Source: Escherichia coli O157:H7
Lineage (GTDB): Bacteria; Pseudomonadota; Gammaproteobacteria; Enterobacterales; Enterobacteriaceae
Length of the DNA stretch: 64,000 nt
NCBI RefSeq assembly: GCF_013167455.1
Contig: NZ_CP038328.1
Reading direction: 5' to 3' (one strand)
Position 1 is the stretch's first letter. Each line of letters begins with the position of its first letter. Positions 17,586 through 29,664 of this stretch are shown here, in pieces. Made by a program: the position numbers and the translations under genes. The notes below the pieces were generated by a model that was not told where the DNA came from, did no database searches, and saw only the letters and a list, made by a program, of their open reading frames with translations.

Positions 17586-20177
17586 ATGCATCAATCTGGT
17601 TCTGTTTCTCTTTGTCGTTCCGCAATATCTGTTCTGGTAGCTACAGCGTTATATTCACCCATAGCATTGGCATCAACAGTTGAGTATGGTGAGACAGTTG
17701 ATGGTGTTGTCCTGGAAAAAGATATCCAGCTGGTTTATGGGACCGCCAATAATACGAAAATCAATCCTGGCGGAGAACAGCATATTAAAGAATTTGGTAT
17801 AAGTAGTAATACTGAAATTAACGGCGGGTATCAGTACATTGAAATGAATGGCACCGCAGAATACTCAGTATTAAATGATGGTTATCAAATTGTTCAAATG
17901 GGTGGCGCGGCAAACCAGACTACGCTCAATAATGGTGTGCTACAGGTTTATGGCGCAGCGAATGATCCCACGATTAAAGGCGGGCGCTTAATCGTTGAAA
18001 AAGATGGGATTACCGTCCTTGCCGCTATCGAAAAGGGAGGATTACTGGAGGTTAAAGAGGGGGGATTAGCGATTGCGGTAGATCAGAAAGCAGGCGGTGC
18101 TATTAAAGCAAGCACGCGGGTCATGGAGGTATTCGGAACAAACCGTCTCGGTCAGTTCGAAATCAAGAATGGTATTGCTAACAATATGCTGTTGGAAAAC
18201 GGCGGAAGTTTGCGAGTTGAAGAAAATGACTTCGCTTATAATACTACTGTAGATAGTGGCGGCTTACTGGAGGTTATGGATGGCGGGACTGCAACTGGCG
18301 TTGATAAAAAAGCAGGCGGAAAATTAATTGTCTCAACGAATGCGCTGGAAGTGAGTGGTACAAACAGTAAAGGCCAATTTAGTATAAAAGATGGTGTGTC
18401 AAAAAATTATGAACTGGATGATGGTTCCGGGCTTATTGTTATGGAGGACACGCAGGCCATTGACACTATCCTCGATGAGCATGCCACTATGCAATCGCTG
18501 GGAAAGGATACTGGTACGAGAGTGCAGGCAAATGCGGTATATGATCTCGGTCGATCAGATCAGAATGGAAGTATAACGTATTCCTCTAAAGCCATCTCTG
18601 AAAATATGGTTATCAACAATGGCCGCGCTAACGTCTGGGCTGGCACAATGGTTAACGTGTCAGTCAGAGGAAATGATGGCATTCTTGAGGTTATGAAGCC
18701 GCAAATAAATTATGCACCCGCAATGTTGGTGGGTAAGGTAGTGGTTTCTGAGGGCGCTTCTTTAAGAACGCATGGTGCCGTGGATACCAGCAAAGCGGAT
18801 GTTTCGCTCGAAAATAGCGCATGGACCATCATTGCCGATATCACTACGACGAACCAAAACACCCGCCTTAACTTAGCCAACCTTGCGATGTCTGGCGCAA
18901 ATGTGATTATGATGGATGAGTCAGTGACTCGTTCATCTGTGACGGCAAGTGCGGAAAATTTCACTACGTTGACCACCAATACCCTGTCGGGAAACGGCAA
19001 TTTTTATATGCGTACCGATATGGCGAATCATCAGAGCGATCAGCTCAACGTCACCGGTCAGGCAACAGGTGATTTCAAAATATTCGTGACGGACACCGGT
19101 GCCAGCCCGGCAGCAGGAGATAGCCTTACACTGGTAACAACGGGCGGCGGTGATGCTGCATTTACGTTGGGCAATGCCGGAGGCGTTGTTGATATCGGTA
19201 CGTATGAATATACCTTGCTGGATAATGGTAACCATAGCTGGAGTCTGGCAGAGAATCGCGCGCAAATTACCCCTTCAACCACTGATGTGCTGAATATGGC
19301 GGCCGCACAACCGCTGGTATTTGATGCAGAACTGGACACCGTGCGTGAGCGTCTTGGTAGCGTAAAAGGCGTTAGTTACGATACGGCGATGTGGAGTTCG
19401 GCAATTAACACCCGCAACAACGTGACCACTGATGCGGGAGCTGGTTTTGAGCAAACATTGACGGGCCTGACGCTCGGTATCGATAGCCGTTTCTCCCGTG
19501 AAGAAAGCAGCACAATTCGCGGCTTGTTCTTTGGTTACTCTCATTCTGATATTGGTTTTGATCGCGGCGGCAAAGGCAATGTCGATAGCTATACCCTGGG
19601 GGCTTATGCCGGTTGGGAGCATCAGAACGGTGCCTATGTTGATGGAGTGGTGAAAGTTGACCGTTTTGCCAACACCATCCATGGCAAGATGAGTAATGGG
19701 GCAACAGCGTTTGGCGATTACAATAGTAACGGCGCGGGTGCTCATGTCGAGAGCGGGTTCCGTTGGGTTGACGGATTGTGGAGTGTTAGACCCTATCTGG
19801 CCTTTACCGGCTTTACCACAGATGGTCAGGACTACACGTTATCAAACGGCATGCGCGCGGATGTGGGAAATACCCGGATATTACGCGCTGAAGCGGGAAC
19901 GGCGGTAAGCTATCACATGGACCTGCAAAACGGTACGACGCTGGAACCCTGGCTGAAAGCCGCCGTGCGTCAGGAATACGCCGATTCTAACCAGGTGAAA
20001 GTTAATGACGATGGCAAATTTAATAATGATGTGGCTGGAACCCGTGGCGTTTATCAGGCTGGGATAAGGTCATCGTTTACCCCGACGTTAAGCGGTCATT
20101 TGTCAGTCAGCTATGGCAATGGCGCAGGGGTAGAATCGCCGTGGAATACCCAGGCGGGTGTGGTCTGGACGTTCTGA
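17586..20177 (+). CDS. yejO: Autotransporter adhesin-like protein YejO (intact)
   Basis: 863-aa ORF; signal peptide, repetitive beta-helix-like passenger, C-terminal beta-barrel ending in WTF. Confidence 0.8.
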   Translation: MHQSGSVSLCRSAISVLVATALYSPIALASTVEYGETVDGVVLEKDIQLVYGTANNTKINPGGEQHIKEFGISSNTEINGGYQYIEMNGTAEYSVLNDGYQIVQMGGAANQTTLNNGVLQVYGAANDPTIKGGRLIVEKDGITVLAAIEKGGLLEVKEGGLAIAVDQKAGGAIKASTRVMEVFGTNRLGQFEIKNGIANNMLLENGGSLRVEENDFAYNTTVDSGGLLEVMDGGTATGVDKKAGGKLIVSTNALEVSGTNSKGQFSIKDGVSKNYELDDGSGLIVMEDTQAIDTILDEHATMQSLGKDTGTRVQANAVYDLGRSDQNGSITYSSKAISENMVINNGRANVWAGTMVNVSVRGNDGILEVMKPQINYAPAMLVGKVVVSEGASLRTHGAVDTSKADVSLENSAWTIIADITTTNQNTRLNLANLAMSGANVIMMDESVTRSSVTASAENFTTLTTNTLSGNGNFYMRTDMANHQSDQLNVTGQATGDFKIFVTDTGASPAAGDSLTLVTTGGGDAAFTLGNAGGVVDIGTYEYTLLDNGNHSWSLAENRAQITPSTTDVLNMAAAQPLVFDAELDTVRERLGSVKGVSYDTAMWSSAINTRNNVTTDAGAGFEQTLTGLTLGIDSRFSREESSTIRGLFFGYSHSDIGFDRGGKGNVDSYTLGAYAGWEHQNGAYVDGVVKVDRFANTIHGKMSNGATAFGDYNSNGAGAHVESGFRWVDGLWSVRPYLAFTGFTTDGQDYTLSNGMRADVGNTRILRAEAGTAVSYHMDLQNGTTLEPWLKAAVRQEYADSNQVKVNDDGKFNNDVAGTRGVYQAGIRSSFTPTLSGHLSVSYGNGAGVESPWNTQAGVVWTF

Positions 20178-20237
20178 TAACAGACAATAAACAGGCCCTG
20201 ATGTGTCGCGGTCTGTTTATCGAATTAAATGCAGATA

Positions 20238-20270
20238 TAAAAAAACCAACCTTTACGGTTGGTTTTTTTG
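20238..20270 (+). terminator. Intrinsic terminator after yejO
   Basis: aaaaaACCAACC-ttta-CGGTTGGttttttt. Confidence 0.7.
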
Positions 20271-20275
20271 GGATT

Positions 20276-20292
20276 TTTGGTCGGCACGAGAG
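20276..20292. repeat. attL: 17-bp direct repeat TTTGGTCGGCACGAGAG, a copy of the tRNA-Pro 3' end
   Basis: Identical 17-mer at 29850-29866 overlapping the tRNA-Pro 3' end. Confidence 0.85.
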
Positions 20293-20353
20293 TAGTTTAA
20301 TTGAGTATGTAACTACATGATTTTAAATAATATGCTTGATTCAACTTTTAAAC

Positions 20354-20377
20354 CGTATAACTAAACGTATAACTAAA
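20354..20377 (+). repeat. Two tandem CGTATAACTAAA motifs at left end (candidate integrase arm-type sites)
   Basis: Same 12-mer present four times near the right end (29665-29720). Confidence 0.5.
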
Positions 20378-20559
20378 ATCATTTGCTGAAAAAGTGTACA
20401 ATTTAAATGCGAGTTTTCCTGTGGTAAAAGCTCCAACCGTAACGATGTTCGTTATGGTTGCCTTGATGGTCTGCGTGGTCATTATGACCATTCAGGATTT
20501 GAAGGGTGACGCTTCCGACTTCCTCAAATTGAGGTTTCCGAAAATATCAGCGGGTTAGG

Positions 20560-20860
20560 CCAGAGTGCAAATTTGCACTCTGGAACAATTCCAACCAGTA
20601 ATCAGCGCAATTTTGCGCTTTGCTTTAAGTTCAGCGAGTAACCGAAGGCGGAATTACGCCCTCGGTACTCACATATGAGAAACGATATTTCTTCCACCGA
20701 TACCCTTTATTTGGGTATCGCGAGTAAGCCCCAAAATCTGGGTGTTACTCTTACTACCCAAACTACGGGTATTTTCCGTAATTTCATGGTCGAGTTGCAG
20801 ATCTGCAACTCACCCACCAGCCAACGCAATTTTGCGCTTTGCTTTAAGTTCAACCAGTTA
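20560..20860. other. Hairpin-dense non-coding left arm of island with duplicated composite element
   Basis: Perfect 24-bp palindrome CCAGAGTGCAAATTTGCACTCTGG (20561-20584); GAGTTGCAGATCTGCAACTC (20791-20810); near-identical direct repeats containing GCGCAATTTTGCGCTTTGCTTTAAGTTCA (20605-20633 and 20826-20853); further hairpins at 20641-20666 and 20698-20718; no ORF with RBS. Confidence 0.6.
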
Positions 20861-21139
20861 CCGCCGTAACCGCTCCGGCTTCTTCCAGTGGTACGTAATT
20901 TTTGCTTTTTCCCTGTACGTCTGCACGCGGCGACGGTAGGCCAGCATTTCAAGAACGCGGATCCGTATGTTGCGCATATCAACGCCATTAAGTTCTATAC
21001 CATCACGGCGCATCACCTCAGCAACCACACGCGCGTAATTTTCGGCGGTCACGCTGTACGGCTGCGCGGTTTTTTCGTCAGCCTGCTGGCTGATTCCGGC
21101 GACGCGGCGGATTAATCCCAGTATTTCGGCTTCTGTCAT
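20858..21139 (-). CDS. Hypothetical 93-aa protein, last gene of island packaging/capsid operon
   Basis: ORF with RBS AGGTGGAG 41 nt downstream of the capsid-like gene stop; no recognisable motif. Confidence 0.5.
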   Translation of the reverse strand: MTEAEILGLIRRVAGISQQADEKTAQPYSVTAENYARVVAEVMRRDGIELNGVDMRNIRIRVLEMLAYRRRVQTYREKAKITYHWKKPERLRR

Positions 21140-21180
21140 TTCTCCACCTGGTCAGCTATTAAACTGCGAAAATTTCGTAA

Positions 21181-22149
21181 TTATCCCGATACGGGGATCA
21201 CCATATCGGGATTGATGCCGGAAAAATCAGCTTTCGCCAGAACGGTGACGGCCTTATCGAGTTTTTGCCATCCGCAATAGGTGATTGCCCTGAACGCTGT
21301 AGCGTCATTCTGGAAAAGGCTAACCGCCCCTGATTCGGTTTTTATTACCGCCTCATCAGTTGGGGTTATAACCGTGGCTTCAACGTTAATAATCAGCTTT
21401 TGAGCGTCTATCAGCATCATGCGATCCGCCTGTTCGCTCACAATTACCGGTATTCTCAAAAGCTCTATCTGCCAGAACTCAGCATCAGTAAGCTGTAATG
21501 CGTTTTCTACGGGCAAGATTAGCGACGACGTGGAAAGCGTGTTACCGTTCGCTATGTGCTTTTTGAAAAGCTCTATGAAGTTTTCGGCCTCATCAGCACC
21601 ATTAAGCACGCCCTCAGGGGATACGCCAGCCACCTCCTGATCACTGGAAAGAAATTTTTTATCTATTTCTTTCACCGATTCCGATGTGATCAAGTCTCTG
21701 ATCGCTGAATTGGTGCCAGGGGTGCTAAATTTGATTAGCTCGTTATTCAGCATCACAATAGCGCCAAGTTTGCACAGTTTTAGCGCGCTTTCGTTTACTT
21801 CTCCCTCTTTGACAGGGATTTCTTCTGCTTCTTTAAGCCATTTACTACCCTTGCCTGATATTGACTGCAATTTTGCGCCAAACGGAAGATTAAGCGCGCT
21901 GCTGATTAGCTTGCCTGGTACAGACTGCGAAAAAATATATTCTCCAAGCTCTCTTACTATCGGCTCTGCCACCAGCGACGGCATATTATCCGTAGTCATT
22001 CCGGCAATAATGGATTTTTCAAGAAATTTCGATACTGCCGGATCATTTCTTTTCGTCATCTCTATAGCGTCTGCATGGCTGAATTTACACGATGTAAGCA
22101 CGCTGGCGGCGCGAACTGCCGAAACGCCTTTCATGTTTTTAGAAATCAT
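21181..22149 (-). CDS. Putative HK97-fold major capsid protein-like
   Basis: ~322 aa; segments GKGSKWLKEAEEIPVKEGEVNESALKLCKLGAIVMLNNELIKFS and EGVLNGADEAENF resemble conserved Phage_capsid (HK97 family) motifs from memory; start taken at second ATG (9 nt after GGAGG). Confidence 0.5.
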   Translation of the reverse strand: MISKNMKGVSAVRAASVLTSCKFSHADAIEMTKRNDPAVSKFLEKSIIAGMTTDNMPSLVAEPIVRELGEYIFSQSVPGKLISSALNLPFGAKLQSISGKGSKWLKEAEEIPVKEGEVNESALKLCKLGAIVMLNNELIKFSTPGTNSAIRDLITSESVKEIDKKFLSSDQEVAGVSPEGVLNGADEAENFIELFKKHIANGNTLSTSSLILPVENALQLTDAEFWQIELLRIPVIVSEQADRMMLIDAQKLIINVEATVITPTDEAVIKTESGAVSLFQNDATAFRAITYCGWQKLDKAVTVLAKADFSGINPDMVIPVSG

Positions 22150-22300
22150 CTTCTTCATCCTCCTGGAAGCACGGGTTTAGTGTTTCGTGAAAATATGGCA
22201 TCAGAACAGCGGCGGCCTGTAACCGTATTTCGGTCGGCTGCTGCTTGTCGTTCATGATTTCCGTGAGTACATCAATAGGGTCTGTGATGTATTCGCTCAT
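22139..22300 (-). CDS. Small acidic protein (53 aa) between terS-like and capsid-like genes; below ORF-track threshold
   Basis: ATG with GAGGT RBS 11 nt after terS stop; MSEYITDPIDVLTEIMNDKQQ...EDEEDDF; overlaps capsid-like gene start. Confidence 0.4.
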   Translation of the reverse strand: MSEYITDPIDVLTEIMNDKQQPTEIRLQAAAVLMPYFHETLNPCFQEDEEDDF

Positions 22301-22311
22301 AGTTCGCTACC

Positions 22312-22800
22312 TCAGTGTTTTAAGTCTGTTGGTGGCTTAGGGATGGGGAACCGATTTGAGTAGACACTAGCGGCATTGAGTTTTTTAACCTCTTTTTTCC
22401 CAATGCTGCCGATCTTGCGGTGGGTGAACTGGGCCAGCTTAAACGCGGCATCTAAAGCCAGTTTTGGATCTGTGTCCATGTTGTCAATCAGTATCCTGCC
22501 CATTGCTTTGATGGGGTCGGGTAGGCCGTTATCCATCATCTCAATGGTGTTAATTGATGCCCGTTCCGGTGTAACTTTTTCGGTAACTTTCTTTGTAACT
22601 TTTTTCGGTTTTGTAACCTGAAAAGTTACATCAGAAGTTACAGCCTTAAGATACTTTTTCACCTCAGGATCGTTGGATAGCTGCCAGCCTTTAACCCTTG
22701 CGGTCTTTTCGCTGTATCCAGCATGTATAGCGGCTTCCGTGGGATTTGCGCCCCTTGATAACGCATCAGCAAACCGCTTTTTTTTGGTCGTTAATGCCAT
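22312..22800 (-). CDS. Terminase small subunit-like protein (TerS)
   Basis: Starts MALTTKKKRFADALSRGANPTEAAIHAGYSEKTARVKGWQL, matching the recalled TerS HTH motif (Terminase_2-type); GAGG RBS upstream; the 46-aa N-terminal extension in the track ORF is rejected. Confidence 0.6.
   Translation of the reverse strand: MALTTKKKRFADALSRGANPTEAAIHAGYSEKTARVKGWQLSNDPEVKKYLKAVTSDVTFQVTKPKKVTKKVTEKVTPERASINTIEMMDNGLPDPIKAMGRILIDNMDTDPKLALDAAFKLAQFTHRKIGSIGKKEVKKLNAASVYSNRFPIPKPPTDLKH
22565..22643. repeat. Array of AAAGTTAC / GTAACTTT repeats inside terS-like gene (candidate pac/terminase recognition site)
   Basis: At least six copies in both orientations, encoding the KKVTKKVTEKVT peptide; similar copies upstream at 22821-22850. 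Confidence 0.4.
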
Positions 22801-22927
22801 GCAAAAACCTCGTTTTGAGGGGGTGTAACTTTTCGTGTAACTTTTTTGAAAAGCAAAATTTTCTACGAATGAGACGGGGGGCGGTGTCCAGGGCGATCGA
22901 CTTTCCGGCCGGAACACTCCCCCCCTG

Positions 22928-23089
22928 TCATTGCTCACCGAGTAACGAGATCAGGCCTTCAACTTCATCACTCAGCTTGTTTATTCGTGTCTCAAGCTCT
23001 GCGATCTTTTCCATCAATGGCGCTATGGTGTCTCTTGTTTCCTCGCCAATGGCTTTAATGATGCTTGCCTCGCGTTCTGTGATAGCCAT
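22928..23089 (-). CDS. Small coiled-coil protein (53 aa); below ORF-track threshold
   Basis: ATG with GAGG RBS 8 nt upstream, 3 nt after stop of preceding ORF; MAITEREASIIKAIGEE... Confidence 0.4.
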   Translation of the reverse strand: MAITEREASIIKAIGEETRDTIAPLMEKIAELETRINKLSDEVEGLISLLGEQ

Positions 23090-23092
23090 TGT

Positions 23093-23287
23093 TTACGCCT
23101 CACTTGTTGCAATGCCCAGGCGTTCGCGTAACAGTACGCGCGCAAGATGCCCTATTGTTGGTGTTGCCGCCCTGCCGTAGATACCTGATTCATTCATCCG
23201 GCGCACAATATCGAACTGCAACTTTTTAAGCTCGTTAAGGATTTCATGATCAATCATCACGGTAGCGCTTTGCTTTATCTCTTCCAC
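23093..23287 (-). CDS. Small hypothetical protein (64 aa, GTG start), first gene of packaging operon; possibly DNA-binding
   Basis: ORF with GGAG RBS; located just downstream of a terminator. Confidence 0.4.
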   Translation of the reverse strand: MEEIKQSATVMIDHEILNELKKLQFDIVRRMNESGIYGRAATPTIGHLARVLLRERLGIATSEA

Positions 23288-23374
23288 TTTGTTTTCTCCA
23301 GATACTTATCATTGCATAACCAGTATTTTCGATAGATTATCATTAATTAACCATCTTTGAAGATATATGAGATC

Positions 23375-23399
23375 GAAAAAAAGCCGGATTGCTCCGGCT
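23375..23399 (-). terminator. Intrinsic terminator ending the replication module
   Basis: Minus-strand AGCCGGAGCAATCCGGCT followed by TTTTTTT. Confidence 0.7.
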
Positions 23400-23417
23400 A
23401 TGTGCTCACTTCTTCGG

Positions 23418-23657
23418 TTATTCTCCAGCGCTTTTAACGTTGATGGTTGTTACCTGTTCCGCTTCGGCAATCTCCCGTTCTGTCAGCGTGGCAAAGTTTG
23501 CCGCCGCTGTGGTCATGAATGCGCTTATCAGTTCGGGATGTGCTTTCGCATATCCTTCCCCGGCGTTGCGGTCGATGATTTTTATCGACACCCTTAACCA
23601 GTGTTCCGTCAAATCAAGGGCGTGCGATTGTGATTTTTTTGTGTGCTTCGCTGTCAT
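23418..23657 (-). CDS. Hypothetical 79-aa protein downstream of origin
   Basis: ORF only; weak RBS. Confidence 0.4.
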   Translation of the reverse strand: MTAKHTKKSQSHALDLTEHWLRVSIKIIDRNAGEGYAKAHPELISAFMTTAAANFATLTEREIAEAEQVTTINVKSAGE

Positions 23658-23699
23658 AGGCTTTATCTCACAGCAGTAAATTAAAATTTTTGCGTTTTA

Positions 23700-23935
23700 A
23701 CCCTTCACCTGTTCACCTTTTGATATTTTATCTTTTAATTCATAATGTTAAGGGGTGAACAGTTTCACAAAAACTATTCACCAACTATTCACCACTGTTC
23801 ACCCTTGAAGCTCAATAAACAATCAAAAAGGTGAACAGTGAATAGTTTGGTGAACAGTTCATAAATAACTGTTCACCCTATAATATACTGATATAAAAGA
23901 TATTTATGACAGGGTGAACAGTGGTGAACAGTTAT
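23700..23935. repeat. Iteron array (GGTGAACAG / CTGTTCACC, with CTATTCACC variants) and AT-rich tracts: putative island replication origin
   Basis: At least 8 perfect 9-mers in both orientations plus variants, immediately 3' of the primase-helicase gene. Confidence 0.75.
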
Positions 23936-23944
23936 TCCATAAGT

Positions 23945-25762
23945 TTAATTTTTGCTATCGTCATTAGTGACCGATACACATGACGGCATCCAGTCTTCTG
24001 ATTCCTCCGTCAGTGTCACGTTTGAACGCAAACCGTGCTTCGTTTTCCGTTTCATATACTCCCTGCCATATTCCGCCATTGCCCCCGGCATATCTTTACC
24101 GAAGCGCGTCAGTGTTACAGGTTTACCGAATCCGTGTGCCCTCATATATGCCAGATAGGCGTGATAAAGATACCTGCGCGGACTGAACGGAATAATTTCG
24201 GCATTACCCACTAACAGACCATCACACATTACCGACGACATGAGATAGCCGCAGAAGTCCACCAGCGAATCGCCCTCGCGTTTTATCACCAGAGCTTCTT
24301 CTGATTTCTGCTGCTCATACAGCAGGCGTTTAGCTTCGTCCTGGTCAGAAAAACGAGTAAGCAGGTGGCGAATCACAACCGCCAGCTCTCCTTCTATTTT
24401 TTCTGCCAGCATGGGGTCGCGTTCGTTTTCCGGTACAACCTCCGAAAAATTGAATATCACCCGACGACGTGAAATCCCCCCGCTGCGGTCACTGAATGAC
24501 ATGGCGTTATTGTTCACCGCCAACACTACCGCCTGAATGCGTGTTGAGTAGGGGGCTTTATGCTTCGGGTCGATTGCCACCTTGTCACCGCCTGTAATGG
24601 CCTTAATTCCTGCGCCATCACCAGCGTAACGGGTCATATCCGGCATGATAATCAGCGAAAAGCCAACCACTAACGCGCGTTCCCTGGCATCTTCCAGCGC
24701 CTTCATGCTTGCCGATACCGTGTTGGCCTTACCCGCCAGCATGGTGCAAATCTCCGCCATCACGCTTTTACCACTTCCCCCTGGACCTGTTACCTCAATG
24801 AATAACTGCCAGTCGTACCGGTTCGCCAGCACCATGAATAATGCAGCCAGTACGCGATCCGCCTTGCGGTCATTCTCAGCCACCGAACGGCGTAACCACT
24901 TCCAGAAATTCGGCGCATGTGTTGCCAGCGTTTCCCCCTCTGCTGGTGGGCTGAAAGGTAATTCACTGGCAATTAACAACCAGTCGTTTTTGTTATGCTC
25001 CCGAAAATCGCCTGTCCGGGTATCAAAAACACCGTTACTGAATCCAATCAGGTTACGGGCTGTATTCCCCATTACAGGCAAACTTAACTTCATGGTATCG
25101 ACCGCCGATTTAATGGCGTTCTGCGAATAGCTGATCTCCGCATCAATGAAAATCTGTGCCATAGCTCGCTGTAATTCTTTATCCTGTACTGGCTCCCATA
25201 CAACGCCGTTGTAATAGTGAACAGTGTCAGAGTCAGCATGAATCGCCAGTTCACCGCCATAATGTGCCAGGAGAACTTCGCCGCGTTGACTTGCTCCCAT
25301 CTGGTTAAGCGCCAGTGATGAAGCGTTATCGTCTTTTACCCGCTCTTTTTTCTTTACAGGCAGTTCAACTACCTTTTTCTTTTCCGCCTGCTCTGCCCGT
25401 TCACGTTCCAGATATTCGCGCCAGTTCTCCCGTTTCTGGCTGTGCATTCCTTCAGGGTAATAATCAGCATCCCTGACACCTGCCGCTGCCAGTTTCTGCC
25501 CGATGGTATTAACAAGCCCCGAACGCAATAACCCCGCCTGATAGAGACGCACGCGATAGCGTCCGTCCGGTACGATTTGCAGGTTGTCCAGTTCGGCAAG
25601 TTGTTGCTCTCCAAGCCAGACAGGTGGCACGTTATCGCCAGCCAGTCGCCCGTCCTGTTCCTGCCACTGCTTCGCATGTGCCCACGCATCACTACCCGCA
25701 AAAATGATGACTTCCGTCATTTTGTCACGTGGCTGGTGTTTTAAATTTGGCGCTTTTTTCAT
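23945..25762 (-). CDS. Replication initiator primase-helicase (P4 alpha / D5-like)
   Basis: ~605 aa; Walker A VTGPGGSGKS in C-terminal half; N-terminal region consistent with a primase-type domain; ATGA start/stop overlap with upstream ORF. Confidence 0.8.
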   Translation of the reverse strand: MKKAPNLKHQPRDKMTEVIIFAGSDAWAHAKQWQEQDGRLAGDNVPPVWLGEQQLAELDNLQIVPDGRYRVRLYQAGLLRSGLVNTIGQKLAAAGVRDADYYPEGMHSQKRENWREYLERERAEQAEKKKVVELPVKKKERVKDDNASSLALNQMGASQRGEVLLAHYGGELAIHADSDTVHYYNGVVWEPVQDKELQRAMAQIFIDAEISYSQNAIKSAVDTMKLSLPVMGNTARNLIGFSNGVFDTRTGDFREHNKNDWLLIASELPFSPPAEGETLATHAPNFWKWLRRSVAENDRKADRVLAALFMVLANRYDWQLFIEVTGPGGSGKSVMAEICTMLAGKANTVSASMKALEDARERALVVGFSLIIMPDMTRYAGDGAGIKAITGGDKVAIDPKHKAPYSTRIQAVVLAVNNNAMSFSDRSGGISRRRVIFNFSEVVPENERDPMLAEKIEGELAVVIRHLLTRFSDQDEAKRLLYEQQKSEEALVIKREGDSLVDFCGYLMSSVMCDGLLVGNAEIIPFSPRRYLYHAYLAYMRAHGFGKPVTLTRFGKDMPGAMAEYGREYMKRKTKHGLRSNVTLTEESEDWMPSCVSVTNDDSKN

Positions 25763-26058
25763 TTCTGCTCTCTCCACGCGGCAATCATGTTTTTCAGTTC
25801 CTGTAGTTTTTTATCAACATCCATACATGGCACATGGTTATTTCTGGAAGGCGGGATTTCCCGCCTGAATCTGCTAATAAAGATCTCCACGTTCAGCGAA
25901 CTATGAAATGAATAGCCATCACGAATAAAATACACACGGTCAAACATCAGTTCTTTTACCGTTACTCTGTTACCGTTCTTATCCAGATAAATAGCGCCGG
26001 GGATAATTTTTGGGTGTGCATAACCGCTGGCAGTCAAGCCAGATAAATATGTTCTCAT
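25759..26058 (-). CDS. Hypothetical protein (99 aa), translationally coupled to primase
   Basis: ORF with RBS; its stop overlaps the primase start (ATGA). Confidence 0.5.
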   Translation of the reverse strand: MRTYLSGLTASGYAHPKIIPGAIYLDKNGNRVTVKELMFDRVYFIRDGYSFHSSLNVEIFISRFRREIPPSRNNHVPCMDVDKKLQELKNMIAAWREQK

Positions 26059-26064
26059 GATTAT

Positions 26065-26385
26065 TTATCCCCGATTTGAATCAGTATTCGCTTTCTTTAT
26101 GGCATTTAATGCATCTGTGGCATTTTCAATGGTGCACCGTAACGAAATATTAAACTGTCCAAGCATTGCCAGTAACAAACCGATATTACCCATATCAATG
26201 CGCATGACCTTTTCGTCATAGTCCTCATTTTCTGACGCATGCCACATCAGGCTACCAATTGACGCAACAGCCATTGATATATTGTCAGTAGCCCCATCCG
26301 CAGCGGAATAAACCTTTTTAGCAATATCATGCTCACAGTTAAAATGCGGATTAATCAGGTACTGGTAATTTGACATATCAGGCAT
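26065..26385 (-). CDS. Hypothetical protein (106 aa, starts MPDMSNYQY)
   Basis: Start overlaps upstream stop (ATGCCTGA); track ORF N-terminal extension rejected. Confidence 0.5.
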   Translation of the reverse strand: MPDMSNYQYLINPHFNCEHDIAKKVYSAADGATDNISMAVASIGSLMWHASENEDYDEKVMRIDMGNIGLLLAMLGQFNISLRCTIENATDALNAIKKANTDSNRG

Positions 26386-26935
26386 GGCACACCCCCTGAC
26401 GAATACGGGCGGCGAATACAGCAACACAACCGGACGGGCAACGGCTACGCGCTTCGCGTTCCGTCCAGGCGGTTACGTGGATGATTTGATGTTCTGACGC
26501 GCCAAAGATGATAAAGCGCCAGAGAAAGGCGGTTTGAGAATGTACAAGGGTAGGGATAGTAGCCATGTTGGCAGCCTCCTCAGTGTGGTTAAGATAACCG
26601 CCACCGGAAACGCCAATTTCGCTGGTGGCGGACTGTACAGGGTTGGCGTAACCGGACACTGAAGAAACCGGCGCGGATTGCTCCGCCCCCGTACAGCCCA
26701 CCATTGATAAGGTGTGACTATGCGGCACAAAAAAACACGCGGGGCGCGTGTTATGCGCTTCAGTTTTGCCCAGGACGCCAATCCCGGCACCCGTTTTATG
26801 AGGTGCGCGGGAATCATAGCTATTTTCGACACTGGCGATCAACTGGTTTTTTTCTCCGATATTCAGGGCCAGAAAACGCCACACAAAGGCCGTTTGTGTG
26901 TGTACAAGGTGTGGTATATGATTTACGGCAACCAT
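26378..26935 (-). CDS. Hypothetical protein with internal tandem duplication (possible Ash/Icd-like small-protein family); may be one 185-aa ORF or two in-frame cistrons
   Basis: AGGAG RBS before ATG at 26935; motif IPxLVHxQTAFxWRF occurs twice (N-terminus and at the internal Met at 26566, preceded by GAGGAGG); family name is an unverified recollection. Confidence 0.45.
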   Translation of the reverse strand: MVAVNHIPHLVHTQTAFVWRFLALNIGEKNQLIASVENSYDSRAPHKTGAGIGVLGKTEAHNTRPACFFVPHSHTLSMVGCTGAEQSAPVSSVSGYANPVQSATSEIGVSGGGYLNHTEEAANMATIPTLVHSQTAFLWRFIIFGASEHQIIHVTAWTEREARSRCPSGCVAVFAARIRQGVCHA

Positions 26936-26966
26936 AACGGCTCCTAGTTTACGTTGTTGGTTAGAA

Positions 26967-27008
26967 GCCCTGCGAGTGGTAACGACACTTGCGGGGCTTT
27001 GTCTTTTC
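26967..27008 (+). terminator. Plus-strand-specific terminator-like hairpin within the 5' leader region of the minus-strand replication operon
   Basis: 12-bp stem GCCCTGCGAGTG/CACTTGCGGGGC; both mismatches are G-U wobbles only in the plus-strand RNA; followed by TTTGTCTTTTC. Confidence 0.45.
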
Positions 27009-27026
27009 ATCGATTACCTTGATAAA

Positions 27027-27108
27027 GGTGTCAGCCACTATATTAGTAACAGGTGTCAGCCACGTCAATAGTGTTTTTCCGTTTTCTTGTGTGTATACTG
27101 TCAGCCAC
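27027..27108. promoter_or_regulatory. Divergent promoter region with three GTCAGCCAC operator-like repeats
   Basis: GGTGTCAGCCAC at 27027-27038 and 27052-27063, TGTCAGCCAC at 27099-27108 adjacent to a TATACT -10-like hexamer. Confidence 0.55.
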
Positions 27109-27129
27109 CTAATAACGAGGAAATCAGAT

Positions 27130-27309
27130 ATGGCAACAAAAGCAGTTAATGCAAAATCCAAAAAGCTTGAGGCTCGAGTACCACACGCAATAGCTGATGC
27201 TGTAGAAAATTTAAAGGAAGATGGCGAAAGTACAGGGCAATTTATCGTTTCGGCACTTGAAGGCGAGATCAAACGCCGCCAGCGCCGCAAGGCCAAAGAA
27301 TCAGAATAA
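27130..27309 (+). CDS. Small ribbon-helix-helix-like DNA-binding protein (candidate island repressor)
   Basis: 59-aa ORF with AGGAAA RBS; predicted beta-strand/helix/helix pattern typical of Arc/CopG-type proteins; divergent from replication operon. Confidence 0.5.
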   Translation: MATKAVNAKSKKLEARVPHAIADAVENLKEDGESTGQFIVSALEGEIKRRQRRKAKESE

Positions 27310-27366
27310 TCACTATCAGCGCCGTGGTGTGAGGTATTACGGCGCATTGCTATGCAGGACAACACA

Positions 27367-27540
27367 ATGACCGATAAAGAATTGACCAAAACATTATCAC
27401 CGGCACGGAAAAGACGGCGCAGAAAGATAGAGCATGAATCAGAAAGATTCGCACCATGTGCTTTTGCCCTTGAGCAATTCCTTAAAGAGTACAGGGAAAA
27501 GCGCTCATTGCAGGTATGGCAACGAACTGAACCAGACTGA
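27367..27540 (+). CDS. Small basic hypothetical protein (~57 aa)
   Basis: ORF with AGGA RBS; arginine-rich segment RKRRRRK. Confidence 0.35.
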   Translation: MTDKELTKTLSPARKRRRRKIEHESERFAPCAFALEQFLKEYREKRSLQVWQRTEPD

Positions 27541-27633
27541 TTGCATTGCCCACCAGCCTGATAGCGGCTATCATCCCCGTGCTTATGTTTGGGATCACAT
27601 ACACATAAGGCGCAGCGGGTTAATTGTTCAGAA

Positions 27634-27660
27634 AGGCGGCTCCATATCGGGGCCGCTTTT
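27634..27660 (+). terminator. Intrinsic terminator after plus-strand small genes
   Basis: 8-bp stem GCGGCTCC/GGGGCCGC (one G-U), loop ATATC, then TTTTTT. Confidence 0.7.
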
Positions 27661-27688
27661 TTCGTGTTTGTCATATCTGTGATACCCG

Positions 27689-27895
27689 TTAAGCAGCCGT
27701 TCCGCGTGCTTCCTCTTCGCGTTCTTTCTGCCAGGACAACACATCATCCTCATACCATCCGCGACGGCGTAAACCAACGCGAAAACCCTGCGGAAATTCT
27801 CCGGCGTTGATCATGCTTTGCAGCGTGCTGTCTGCCTTGATGTGGATAATTTTTTTTACTTCCTGGCGAAAGATAATTTTTCTGATTGCTTCCAT
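27689..27895 (-). CDS. alpA: AlpA-family phage regulatory protein / excisionase-like HTH
   Basis: 68-aa ORF; motif STLQSMINAGEFPQGFRVGLRRRGWYEDDVLSW resembles AlpA. Confidence 0.75.
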   Translation of the reverse strand: MEAIRKIIFRQEVKKIIHIKADSTLQSMINAGEFPQGFRVGLRRRGWYEDDVLSWQKEREEEARGTAA

Positions 27896-27912
27896 CGTGA
27901 TTTACCTTGTGA

Positions 27913-27930
27913 ATCCGGTGTATTCCGGTG
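27913..27930. promoter_or_regulatory. Two TCCGGTG motifs upstream of alpA (same motif repeated upstream of int)
   Basis: aATCCGGTGtaTTCCGGTGa; the same heptamer occurs about 5 times at 29743-29844. Confidence 0.4.
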
Positions 27931-28033
27931 ACAAATACGGTAAATCATCGGATATGGGTAAAAACAGTTCCCACCGTTTTTAAACGGTATACACCGTTTT
28001 TTATATTGATGATTTGAAATGGAATTATAAAAA

Positions 28034-28060
28034 AAGCGGCATTTCTGCCGCTTCCAGGAT
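28034..28060 (-). terminator. Intrinsic terminator after the 83-aa ORF
   Basis: Minus-strand GGAAGCGGCAGAAATGCCGC followed by TTTTTTT. Confidence 0.6.
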
Positions 28061-28062
28061 TG

Positions 28063-28314
28063 TTACCGCCATTTTTTGGGCCTGCCTCCGATCTTCATAG
28101 ATGCCGGACGTACGACCTTATCAATACTTACCGCCAGATTTCTGGAAGCGCCACGGGATACCAGAAAATCTACTACCTGTTTTTTTGATGGGGCCGTCGT
28201 TCTGTCCTCCGGATCGTAGGTTGACCAAAATTCATGCTGAACCATCAGGGCCAGTTGCAGCCCGTCGCAATTGCATCTGATATTTTTTTGCATCTTAACG
28301 GTTTCATGTTTCAC
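28063..28314 (-). CDS. Hypothetical 83-aa protein between int and alpA (CxC motif, basic C-terminus)
   Basis: ORF only. Confidence 0.4.
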   Translation of the reverse strand: MKHETVKMQKNIRCNCDGLQLALMVQHEFWSTYDPEDRTTAPSKKQVVDFLVSRGASRNLAVSIDKVVRPASMKIGGRPKKWR

Positions 28315-28391
28315 GGCCTTGTCGTTAAATTTGATGCAATTATACGACGGTTTTACATGGTTTTCGTAGTTTTTACTGGTTTTCTGTACAG

Positions 28392-29633
28392 CTACACGGC
28401 TCGGATACCCCTTTTACCACTGGCGAGGGTTACGCCCGTCGCCGCGGCCTCGACAAATTCGCCCCACCAGCGCATCAGCACGATGCGTTTTTCTATGTAG
28501 TTGCTCCGGTTGTATGCCCGTCTAACTTCGTTGGTGTCGACGTGGGCAAGTGCCGCCTCTATTACGTCCGGCTCGAATCCTTCCTCGTTCGCTGCTGTGC
28601 TGAATATGGCGCGTAATCCATGAGACACCAGCACGCCAGCGAATCCCATACGCCGCAATGCTGCGTTAGCTGTCTGGCTGTTCATCGGCTGCTGTGGGTC
28701 TTTCAGACTTGGGAAAACGTAATTGCGGTGGTGGCTGATTGGTTTCATGGCCTCCAGCACCGCCATAGCCTGACCGGAAAGCGGGATAACGTGATCCCTG
28801 CGCATCTTCATGCGTCCGGCAGGTATCGTCCATTGCTTCGCGTCCAGGTTGATTTCATCCCACCGCGTTGATGACGCTTCGGCGGGACGGGTTACGGTCA
28901 GTAACTGCCATTCAATCAGTAATCTGGTCTGCCGTTCTGTTGCCGATACTGATAAAGCCTGCATAAGCTCGGGCAGCTGTTCGGGGCGGATTGTTGGCAT
29001 ATGTTTTTTTACAGGTGAGGGAAACGCCTTACGCACATTCATAGCCGGATTGGCATCAATCAGCCCACTGTTGGCGGCGTAATCCATTACCTCATTAACG
29101 CGCTGTAAAACCCGCTTGAGTGTTTCCAGGTTGCCGCGCTCCTTGATGGGGGTAAGCACTTCAACGAACCTTCGGGCGGTGAGGGTATCTATTGGCGTGT
29201 TGCCGATGAACGGGAATACATATTTATCCAGCGAACGCCAGATGTCTTTAATCGTGTTGGGGGCCAGATTCTGGCTGATTTTCACCTGGTACCATGCCGC
29301 CGCCACATTTTCGAACGTGTTCCCTTGTCTTCGGGCCTCTGTCTCTCTTTTTTGCCTCTCGTGGTCCTGCGGGTCAGTTCCGGCACTGATTAACGTCCTG
29401 TACTCGCTACGGCGTTTTCTGGCATCAGCCAGGGAAACATCTTCAAGCGATCCAAAACTCAGCAATATTCTTTTTTTGTCCGATGGTCGGTAGTAGGAAA
29501 ATCTCCAGAGTTTTGATCCAGACGGTTTGACCAGGAGAAAAAGCCCTCCGCCGTCCTGCAGGGTGTACTCCTTTTGCGCTGGTCTGGCTGCTTTGATCTG
29601 CACTGTGGTTAATGGGTGTGTTTTTCTCGCCAT
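28392..29633 (-). CDS. int: Tyrosine recombinase, P4-family integrase
   Basis: ~413 aa from MARKTHPLT; N-terminal DGGGLFLLVKPSGSKLWRF arm-binding-like domain; catalytic HGLR and RAYNRSNY(Y) motifs; adjacent to tRNA. Confidence 0.9.
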   Translation of the reverse strand: MARKTHPLTTVQIKAARPAQKEYTLQDGGGLFLLVKPSGSKLWRFSYYRPSDKKRILLSFGSLEDVSLADARKRRSEYRTLISAGTDPQDHERQKRETEARRQGNTFENVAAAWYQVKISQNLAPNTIKDIWRSLDKYVFPFIGNTPIDTLTARRFVEVLTPIKERGNLETLKRVLQRVNEVMDYAANSGLIDANPAMNVRKAFPSPVKKHMPTIRPEQLPELMQALSVSATERQTRLLIEWQLLTVTRPAEASSTRWDEINLDAKQWTIPAGRMKMRRDHVIPLSGQAMAVLEAMKPISHHRNYVFPSLKDPQQPMNSQTANAALRRMGFAGVLVSHGLRAIFSTAANEEGFEPDVIEAALAHVDTNEVRRAYNRSNYIEKRIVLMRWWGEFVEAAATGVTLASGKRGIRAV

Positions 29634-29664
29634 ATGTCTATGATTCCACACGAAAAAACAGGGT

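Follow-up and report, generated by a model that had tools for sequence, protein, structure and literature searches.

A PICI-type satellite of Escherichia coli O157:H7 carries a small terminase, a capsid homologue and a cos-like site that point to lambdoid helper phages

A 64,000-nt stretch of the Escherichia coli O157:H7 chromosome (contig NZ_CP038328.1 of RefSeq assembly GCF_013167455.1; hereafter the window, with positions counted from its first letter) carries an inserted element of ~9.57 kb. This island is probably a classical Gram-negative satellite of the phage-inducible chromosomal island (PICI) type. The region around 21181-22800 encodes a small terminase (TerS) and a homologue of HK97-fold major capsid proteins, and probably acts as a packaging and helper-exploitation module directed at a lambdoid helper phage. 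The island is inserted in the proL tRNA-Pro gene between yejO and yejM. Its attachment (att) cores are 17-nt exact repeats of the tRNA 3' end with a start-to-start spacing of 9574 nt (direct repeat D3). The left core, TTTGGTCGGCACGAGAG, is the tRNA-Pro 3'-end copy at 20276-20292, and the right core at 29850-29866 overlaps the 3' end of tRNA-Pro(GGG) (29852-29928, minus strand; core and tRNA together 29850-29928). Nearly all island genes are located on the minus strand. In the order of transcription they comprise int, the AlpA-type gene, regulators and small open reading frames (ORFs), a DUF4222 gene, the primase gene, an A+T-rich stretch, small ORFs, terS, a 53-aa ORF, the capsid homologue and a 93-aa ORF.

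The components of a classical PICI were found in this element. The core of proteobacterial PICIs consists of integrase, AlpA, primase, a capsid-morphogenesis gene and terS (PMC10085698). In the SatelliteFinder-type definition the median PICI size is 9.5 kb, and other structural genes count as forbidden components (PMC10085698). In the island, a tyrosine integrase (28392-29651, minus strand; PHROG 1 integrase, E 9e-72) is accompanied by att repeats. An AlpA-type helix-turn-helix regulator/excisionase of 68 aa is encoded at 27689-27895 (minus strand; PHROG 2790 and PHROG 66 'excisionase and transcriptional regulator', E 2.5e-6). Its PHROG score is modest, and the gene at the equivalent position of a Hafnia island carries PF05930 Phage_AlpA. 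A P4-type primase/replication protein of 610 aa follows at 23945-25777 (minus strand; PHROG 864 DNA primase, E 4e-194). Together with the capsid-morphogenesis gene, terS, the size and the lack of the excluded genes, this is the composition of a classical PICI. Absences were called from a scan of 20 island ORFs against the PHROGs, which recognized only the integrase, the AlpA-type regulator, the primase, regulators, TerS and the capsid homologue. No portal, protease, large terminase (TerL), head-tail connector, tail or lysis gene was found among these ORFs, and an island of 9.57 kb leaves no space for the missing portal, protease and TerL genes. The layout is likewise that of classical Gram-negative PICIs: int, alpA, pri/rep and capsid gene/terS run in one direction over ~9.5 kb at an att site unused by prophages.

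The small terminase (162 aa; 22312-22800, minus strand; ATG preceded by GAGG) consists of an N-terminal helix-turn-helix DNA-binding domain, a poorly conserved linker of KVT repeats and conserved C-terminal helices. A longer, GTG-started ORF reaches 22938, and this extension is probably spurious. TerS matched PHROG 641 'terminase small subunit' over its full length (E 1.5e-43) and Pfam Terminase_2 (PF03592) at model positions 1-54 (E 5.2e-10). Only these 54 N-terminal Pfam positions match; the C-terminal helices are 58% identical to those of phage TerS and have a predicted local distance difference test score (pLDDT) of 55-85 in the monomer model. Over the full length, island TerS is 47% identical to TerS of the Shiga toxin (Stx) 1a phage Stx1_14040, which is encoded directly upstream of TerL. 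Sequence searches against PDB chains were unproductive for both proteins: the capsid homologue gave no match and TerS nothing significant, only TerS DNA-binding domains at E 0.18-0.9. Structure prediction and Foldseek were therefore used. A word-indexed homologue search returned 8 and 13 relatives only, and an exhaustive representative search gave the alignment depth for modelling. The AlphaFold model of TerS (17 sequences) has a confident four-helix N-terminal domain, of which residues 1-56 superpose on the DNA-binding domain of SF6 TerS (4zc3; TMt 0.86, root mean square deviation 1.6 Å, 30% identity). Small terminases made up 11 of the 12 top PDB structural matches of this model. An identity of TerS with Rpp was rejected, as BLASTP against the 144-aa RppA candidate of EcCICFT073 gave no alignment better than E 5.

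The capsid homologue is encoded at 21181-22158 (minus strand) and comprises 325 aa when read from the first ATG. The RefSeq start of the orthologue (MISKN..., 22149) gives 322 aa and is the probable start here as well. The protein matched Pfam Phage_capsid (PF05065) with E 4.5e-5 over model positions 47-274 of 280, and PHROG 617 and PHROG 10 'major head protein' with E 2e-10 and 2e-8. Against the NCBIfam HK97 equivalog TIGR01554 it scored 26.5 bits, just below the cut-off of 27.5. In tblastn searches, 89-94% of its length aligned to phage capsid genes with E down to 3e-17. The AlphaFold model (67 sequences) reached a mean pLDDT of 91.0 and a predicted template modelling score (pTM) of 0.87. 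Foldseek against the PDB returned 259 matches at E<=0.001, and the best 50 listed were all HK97-fold shell proteins. Among the matches listed were Bxb1 (5e-12), SaPI1/80alpha, the SaPIbov5 procapsid 7rwz including Ccm, HK97, the P2/P4 procapsid, a gene-transfer-agent capsid and encapsulins. The family similarities of both proteins are far beyond chance. An earlier note, made from the letters of the window, had placed the two ORFs here on the minus strand and had read them as a TerS and an HK97-fold capsid-like protein in an island devoid of portal, protease and large terminase. Both ORFs are at this place, the strings quoted in support are present (RFADALSRGANPTEAAIHAGYSEKTARVKGW in TerS and all three capsid strings in the capsid-like ORF), and the family, profile and model matches together with the PHROG scan bear out these assignments.

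The capsid homologue aligns with one part of a larger phage protein. Its residues 10-316 match residues 291-638 of the 645-aa Peptidase_S78::Phage_capsid fusion of Stx1_14040 (25% identity, E 1e-19). The island protein thus corresponds to the capsid part of the fusion, starting just after the protease (Pfam-matched residues 48-153) and the intervening linker, both of which it lacks. Compared with the copy in an E. coli O111:H11 island, 20 synonymous and 6 non-synonymous differences were counted (dN/dS 0.08), indicating that the gene is under purifying selection. Orthologues with 45-50% identity occupy the same cassette in other genera. In the window's copy, a 1-nt deletion in an A-run (21181-21230, minus strand) changes GCGAAAAGCTGA to GCGAAAGCTGA. 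The usual stop after ...VLAKS is thereby swapped for a 16-aa tail of low pLDDT, ADFSGINPDMVIPVSG; the usual form has 307-310 aa. This deletion may reflect a sequencing error, phase variation of the run or incipient gene decay.

The nearest phage relatives of both proteins belong to one lambdoid, often Stx-converting group (1717, Stx1a phages, PPompW prophages and Lys8385Vzw). In phages of this helper type the late region has the order HNH nuclease, TerS, TerL, Peptidase_S78::Phage_capsid fusion, portal. To this group, island TerS is 46-47% identical over its full length; for the capsid homologue the identity is 24-26% across 94% of the protein, within the C-terminal half of the fusion. These relationships point to a Shiga-toxin-type lambdoid helper with an HNH-TerS-TerL-protease::major capsid protein (MCP) module. 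At >=95% identity, the island cassette was detected in 219 of 5426 complete E. coli genomes (about 4%); the rows sampled (at most 60) were mostly O157, O111 and O103 strains, from bovine or human isolates. The helper-type head module is present in 1254 genomes, often with 3-6 copies in Shiga toxin-producing E. coli (STEC). The O111:H11 island has the same gene order, and RefSeq names its two genes 'terminase small subunit' and 'phage major capsid protein'; such names are already given in the 219 complete E. coli genomes. In Serratia aquatilis and Hafnia, islands of ~8-9 kb with int, alpA and replicase genes likewise terminate in a cassette of TerS, a 50-54 aa ORF and the capsid homologue.

The identity between island TerS and helper-type TerS is unevenly distributed: 60% in the N-terminal part, 21% in the middle/linker and 58% in the C-terminal part. 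On inspection of the alignment, a core stretch of the C-terminal part is largely identical. This pattern would be expected of a TerS that docks on the helper motor and reads other DNA.

Upstream of terS lies a 56-nt sequence, GGGGGGGAGTGTTCCGGCCGGAAAGTCGATCGCCCTGGACACCGCCCCCCGTCTCA (22870-22925, minus strand), that occurs once in the window and resembles a phage cos core. It is 82-86% identical to the HNH-terS intergenic block of the Stx phages 1717 and Stx1_14040 (L002 4252-4305; L003 5718-5772). The shared block extends from a G-run to a C-run, and in the phages it directly follows the HNH gene, at the corresponding position upstream of terS. The deposited Lys8385Vzw genome starts and ends inside this block (record ends L009/L010), the boundary falling between ...CCCCCCCT and CTCACGC.... 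These ends fit the block being the cos cleavage region, and the depositors' choice of ends may have other grounds. In both island and helper, the cut would be predicted between ...CCCCCCGT and CTCA....

The repeats next to this block differ between island and phages. Five AGTTAC sites lie inside terS (22571-22642), three of them direct at 12-nt spacing and two inverted; they are candidate cosB-like TerS-binding sites. Two further AGTTAC(AC) sites, 12 nt apart, are located between the cos core and the terS start (22825-22842). The segment 22571-22844 holds 7 of the window's 18 AGTTAC sites and 6 of its 7 GTAACTTT sites; none of 100 shuffles gave seven GTAACTTT matches. An identical AAAAAGTTACACCC is present upstream of terS in the Hafnia island. 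Downstream of the cos block the phages have five TGTTAAC sites, whereas the island has seven AGTTAC sites, two before terS and five in its 5' half, mostly at 12-nt spacing.

The same division was found in IMG/VR, where an identical 23-nt cos core occurs in 61 viral contigs. Fifty of these encode a phage-type TerS (with TerL in 44) and have on average 4.5 TGTTAAC-type sites and no AGTTAC sites. Six encode an island-type TerS and an island-type capsid homologue, lack TerL and have exactly 7 AGTTAC sites each and no TGTTAAC; the remaining five contigs were too short to classify. The identical 23-nt core is also found in a third phage lineage whose TerS is only 48% identical to the helper type (e.g. 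L021, L024, L026, L037), which suggests that one nuclease site may serve several TerS specificities. The simplest reading is a shared cosN-like nuclease site combined with cosB-like repeats that would be specific for each TerS. The Rpp system of EcCICFT073 combines conserved cosN and cosQ with a differing cosB (PMC6739421). The island appears to follow the same logic, but by means of a complete satellite TerS as in pac-type Staphylococcus aureus pathogenicity islands (SaPIs).

Between terS and the capsid gene, a 53-aa ORF (MSEYITDPIDVLTEIMNDKQQPTEIRLQAAAVLMPYFHE...; 22139-22300, minus strand) resembles the C-terminal helix pair of TerS, residues 90-128. It matched PHROG 641 at positions 89-125 (E 1.1e-6), and hhalign against the TerS alignment placed it on residues 90-128 of island TerS with a probability of 82% (E 1.1e-5). 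BLASTP against island TerS gave nothing, and the likeness is visible at the profile level only. Both the location and the sequence of this ORF (50-54 aa) are kept in the islands of Hafnia and Serratia. Speculatively, the peptide may be a decoy that interferes with TerS or TerL of the helper. Precedents for such decoys are Ppi of the SaPIs, as treated in the discussion of PMC6739421, and Gpi of the phage-inducible chromosomal island-like element (PLE; PMC11417361).

Taken together, we propose the following mechanism. A lambdoid helper with the HNH-TerS-TerL-protease::MCP-portal module, which many STEC Stx prophages carry, would induce the island. Island TerS, having kept a helper-like C-terminal part, would recruit TerL and the HNH nuclease of the helper, and its diverged DNA-binding domain would read the island's AGTTAC instead of the phage's TGTTAAC. 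The shared cos core would then be cut, and island concatemers would be packaged ahead of phage DNA. Redirection by a PICI TerS has a precedent in SaPIs, according to the discussion of PMC6739421. The more weakly supported step concerns the capsid homologue, which may, like Ccm, co-assemble or compete with the helper capsid protein and so alter capsid size or poison phage-sized assembly. By analogy, we weakly favour this role as a Ccm-like modifier or competitor.

Several known satellites share parts of this arrangement. Homologues of capsid proteins have been described in EcCICFT073 (c1499) and PmCI172 (Fillol-Salom et al. 2018, PMC6092414). EcCICFT073 lacks a TerS and uses Rpp with the helper TerS, whereas the island described here has its own TerS. 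Its capsid homologue is lambda gpE-like, 45% identical to the CFT073 prophage capsid protein and accompanied by a gpD-like decoration gene; in our island, in contrast, the capsid gene follows terS, and the helper seems to be a phage of the HNH-cos type in which protease and MCP are fused. A common family with c1499 was rejected, as c1499 is of the lambda gpE type and the two proteins have no sequence similarity.

With SaPIbov5, the island shares a distant homologue of the helper HK97-fold capsid protein in the lack of other head genes (~25% identity here to the presumed helper, 23% for Ccm and phi12). The SaPIbov5 helpers phi12 and phiSLT package at a cos site by means of HNH, TerS and TerL, and a copy of this cos is found in the satellite, much as our island has a copy of the cos core of its presumed helper. 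SaPIbov5 encodes no TerS and relies on the phage cos as it is, whereas this island adds its own TerS and its own set of repeats. Ccm shares 23% identity with the phi12 capsid protein and occupies the pentamer positions; it remains dependent on the helper capsid protein and turns prolate heads into small T=4 heads (PMC6893505, PMC5052747, PMC8569155). The likeness of our capsid homologue to Ccm is at the level of the fold only (Foldseek E 4e-9, 13-15% identity to 7rwz chains). The helper capsid here is presumably isometric and carries a fused protease, and the prolate-to-isometric logic of Ccm is therefore not directly transferable.

In pac-type SaPIs (SaPI1, SaPIbov1; TerS_S, Ppi), according to the discussion of PMC6739421, a satellite TerS pairs, as is proposed here, with the helper TerL at a satellite-specific site, and a small companion may block the helper terminase. 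These are headful packagers that remodel capsids by CpmA/CpmB, whereas this island has a cos-core mimic and a capsid homologue, and its 53-aa ORF has no similarity to Ppi. Capsid-forming PICIs (cf-PICIs), e.g. EcCIEDL933, are also E. coli satellites with an alpA-type regulatory module and capsid and terS genes. However, cf-PICIs additionally possess genes for TerL, portal, protease and head-tail connectors, and the helper contributes tails only; no such gene was found in 20276-29866.

A number of points weigh against the proposed mechanism. The helper was assigned from sequence kinship and co-distribution in strains. The C-terminal half of TerS, which would contact the helper motor, was modelled at moderate confidence and as a monomer. 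The AGTTAC repeats inside terS double as the coding sequence of the KVT repeats in the TerS linker, and part of their clustering could therefore be a coding repeat. The frameshifted 16-aa C-terminal tail might impair the window's capsid copy. Finally, deletion or replacement of c1499 in EcCICFT073, the only Gram-negative PICI in which the capsid homologue was tested, had no effect on transfer or on interference with lambda, and EcCICFT073 was packaged in full-size heads (PMC6092414). A capsid-remodelling role is therefore no safe default.

The same observation supports the possibility that the capsid homologue is a dispensable passenger, a helper late gene kept by drift or as a backup, so that only TerS and cos matter. 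PICI capsid genes have indeed been described as not required, and cycles of capture and loss of helper late genes have been proposed (PMC10111431). Capture followed by deletion would fit the metagenomic contig L073 (3596-8108), which encodes a Terminase_2 TerS, a 556-aa protein, a standalone capsid protein of 332 aa (30% identical to the island protein) and a portal. The island cassette resembles a head module from which TerL was lost, and the L073 layout could represent its source. Two more distant standalone homologues lie on contigs too short for context. The altered C-terminus of the window's copy would also suit a passenger. However, the capsid ORF is intact and is kept in the same three-gene cassette in other genera, the dN/dS between the E. 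coli copies is low, and the protein has diverged to ~25% identity to any phage capsid protein while its fold is still confidently predicted. This combination argues for long-term selection within satellites, and we regard a mere passenger as possible yet doubtful. The L073 relative also indicates that the short capsid form can be a true shell protein elsewhere. It has accordingly to be considered that the island protein builds all or most of a satellite-specific shell on the helper portal and is processed by the helper protease, an intermediate between classical and capsid-forming PICIs. The protein spans the full HK97-fold core and an N-terminal helical segment, standalone relatives of ~330 aa are the sole capsid gene of phage-like head modules, and satellites are able to produce shells of their own, as capsid-forming PICIs demonstrate (10.1101/2022.09.08.507074). 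Nevertheless, the 20 ORFs scanned include no scaffold, protease, portal or head-completion genes, and the N-terminal Peptidase_S78-containing part of the helper-type protein (~290 residues) is missing. Ccm fills pentamer positions only and depends on the helper capsid protein (PMC6893505, PMC8569155), and the capsid genes of PICIs and cf-PICIs form separate clades (PMC10085698). A shell made mainly by the island is thus improbable.

A bolder version of the helper mechanism would treat TerS, the 53-aa peptide and the capsid homologue as a three-part weapon against HNH-cos lambdoid phages including Stx prophages. The capsid homologue, free of protease and linker, would form a small shell on the helper portal or cap and poison helper shells, and the 53-aa mimic would titrate helper TerS or TerL. 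We consider this unlikely as a whole; if true, it would lower the yield of Stx phages in STEC carrying the island, and it would amount to a size-redirection mechanism for protease::MCP-fusion capsids, of which no case is known. That the element is a decayed prophage remnant or a P4-like satellite instead of a PICI is highly improbable. Its integrase and primase are of the P4 type (matching PHROG 864 and the TIGR01613 domain), and tRNA genes are common insertion sites of P4-like elements and prophages. However, the primase scored 97.5 bits against TIGR01613, under the cut-off of 108.7; Sid, Psu, Delta and other P4 hijacking genes had no PHROG match among the 20 ORFs. Moreover, both att cores are intact, the compact architecture is kept in three genera, and the five PICI core components are present in the lack of forbidden ones.

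Viewed as a PICI, the island is in large part a textbook case. The earlier note had seen in the capsid gene an unusual hijacking strategy. A capsid-morphogenesis gene and terS belong to the published PICI core, and 21 of 29 reference Gram-negative PICIs contain a major-capsid gene (Mageeney et al., PMC10111431); a lone capsid gene is hence a known and common satellite feature. The statement that the satellite supplies its own major capsid protein went beyond the evidence, since by precedent a modifier or competitor of the helper capsid seems likelier. The suggestion of chimeric or size-altered capsids has a structurally solved precedent in SaPIbov5 Ccm (PMC8569155). What is added is a testable pairing of an uncharacterized PICI lineage with a head-packaging module of Stx-converting and other lambdoid phages. 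Our literature search brought up no paper that pairs a TerS-encoding E. coli PICI with HNH-cos or Stx phages, nor did we find the helper assignment, the cos-core mimic with private repeats or the TerS-like mini-ORF described. Helper pairing, cos mimic and mini-ORF form a tidy and testable model that would not surprise a specialist. If the island rides on these phages or interferes with them, it could affect how much Stx phage is produced and how island DNA spreads between STEC strains. The island furthermore offers an E. coli system for the role of Gram-negative PICI capsid homologues, after c1499 gave no phenotype.

The packaging module is separated from the replication module by a terminator-like hairpin (23382-23399, minus strand; 7 pairs, 5 of them G-C, followed by TTTTTTT). 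A sigma-70 promoter scan of 20200-24000 gave no promoter-like site, and none was assigned to the packaging module. Read-through, or an activator or antiterminator supplied by the helper, may be required for the packaging genes to be expressed. Two small ORFs of 53 aa and 64 aa at the head of the module (22928-23287, minus strand) are kept in the O111:H11 island and had no significant family match in the PHROG scan. The A+T-rich stretch with repeats (D6) at 23658-23944 lies 3' of the primase gene; as the origin of replication (ori) of PICIs sits directly 3' of pri-rep (PMC6092414), it is a candidate ori by analogy. On the other side of the primase gene, a DUF4222 protein (RefSeq name of the orthologue; PHROG 285) is encoded at 25759-26058 (minus strand). 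A 210-aa ORF at 26378-27010 (minus strand) matched PHROG 29966 over its full length (E 1e-109), and several phage transcriptional regulator/repressor families match as well. The regulatory region is not alike in the window island and the O111:H11 island, where the RefSeq annotation of the counterpart of 26378-27010 is limited to a short Icd-like gene and YlcI/YnfO-like genes on the plus strand. Just inside each island end, a 26-nt exact repeat (D4) is present with the copies CCGTATAACTAAACGTATAACTAAAA at 20353-20378 and 29696-29721. It consists of two CGTATAACTAAA units, and related GTTATAC units are found at 29662-29689; the end repeats are probably arm-type binding sites of the integrase.

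Downstream of the capsid homologue, a 93-aa ORF (20858-21139, minus strand) matched PHROG 1561, a family of unknown function, over its full length (E 3.9e-54). A 53-nt direct repeat of 83% identity (20592-20644 and 20811-20863) overlaps the end of this ORF. The O111:H11 island has a truncated pseudogene at this place, and the repeat looks like what is left of a 3' accessory gene that was duplicated or decayed. When eight island proteins were scanned with PADLOC, no known defence-system component was recognized. Apart from the island, the window is E. coli core chromosome and 100% identical to O157:H7-like strains; the order is ccm genes, narP, yejO, the inserted element, tRNA-Pro(GGG), yejM and yejL. 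Ordinary E. coli core genes account for the low-GC stretches elsewhere in the window. Next to the island, the autotransporter ORF yejO (17586-20177, plus strand) is intact and encodes 863 aa; in the O111:H11 genome, whose island is the most similar one, an internal stop makes yejO a pseudogene.

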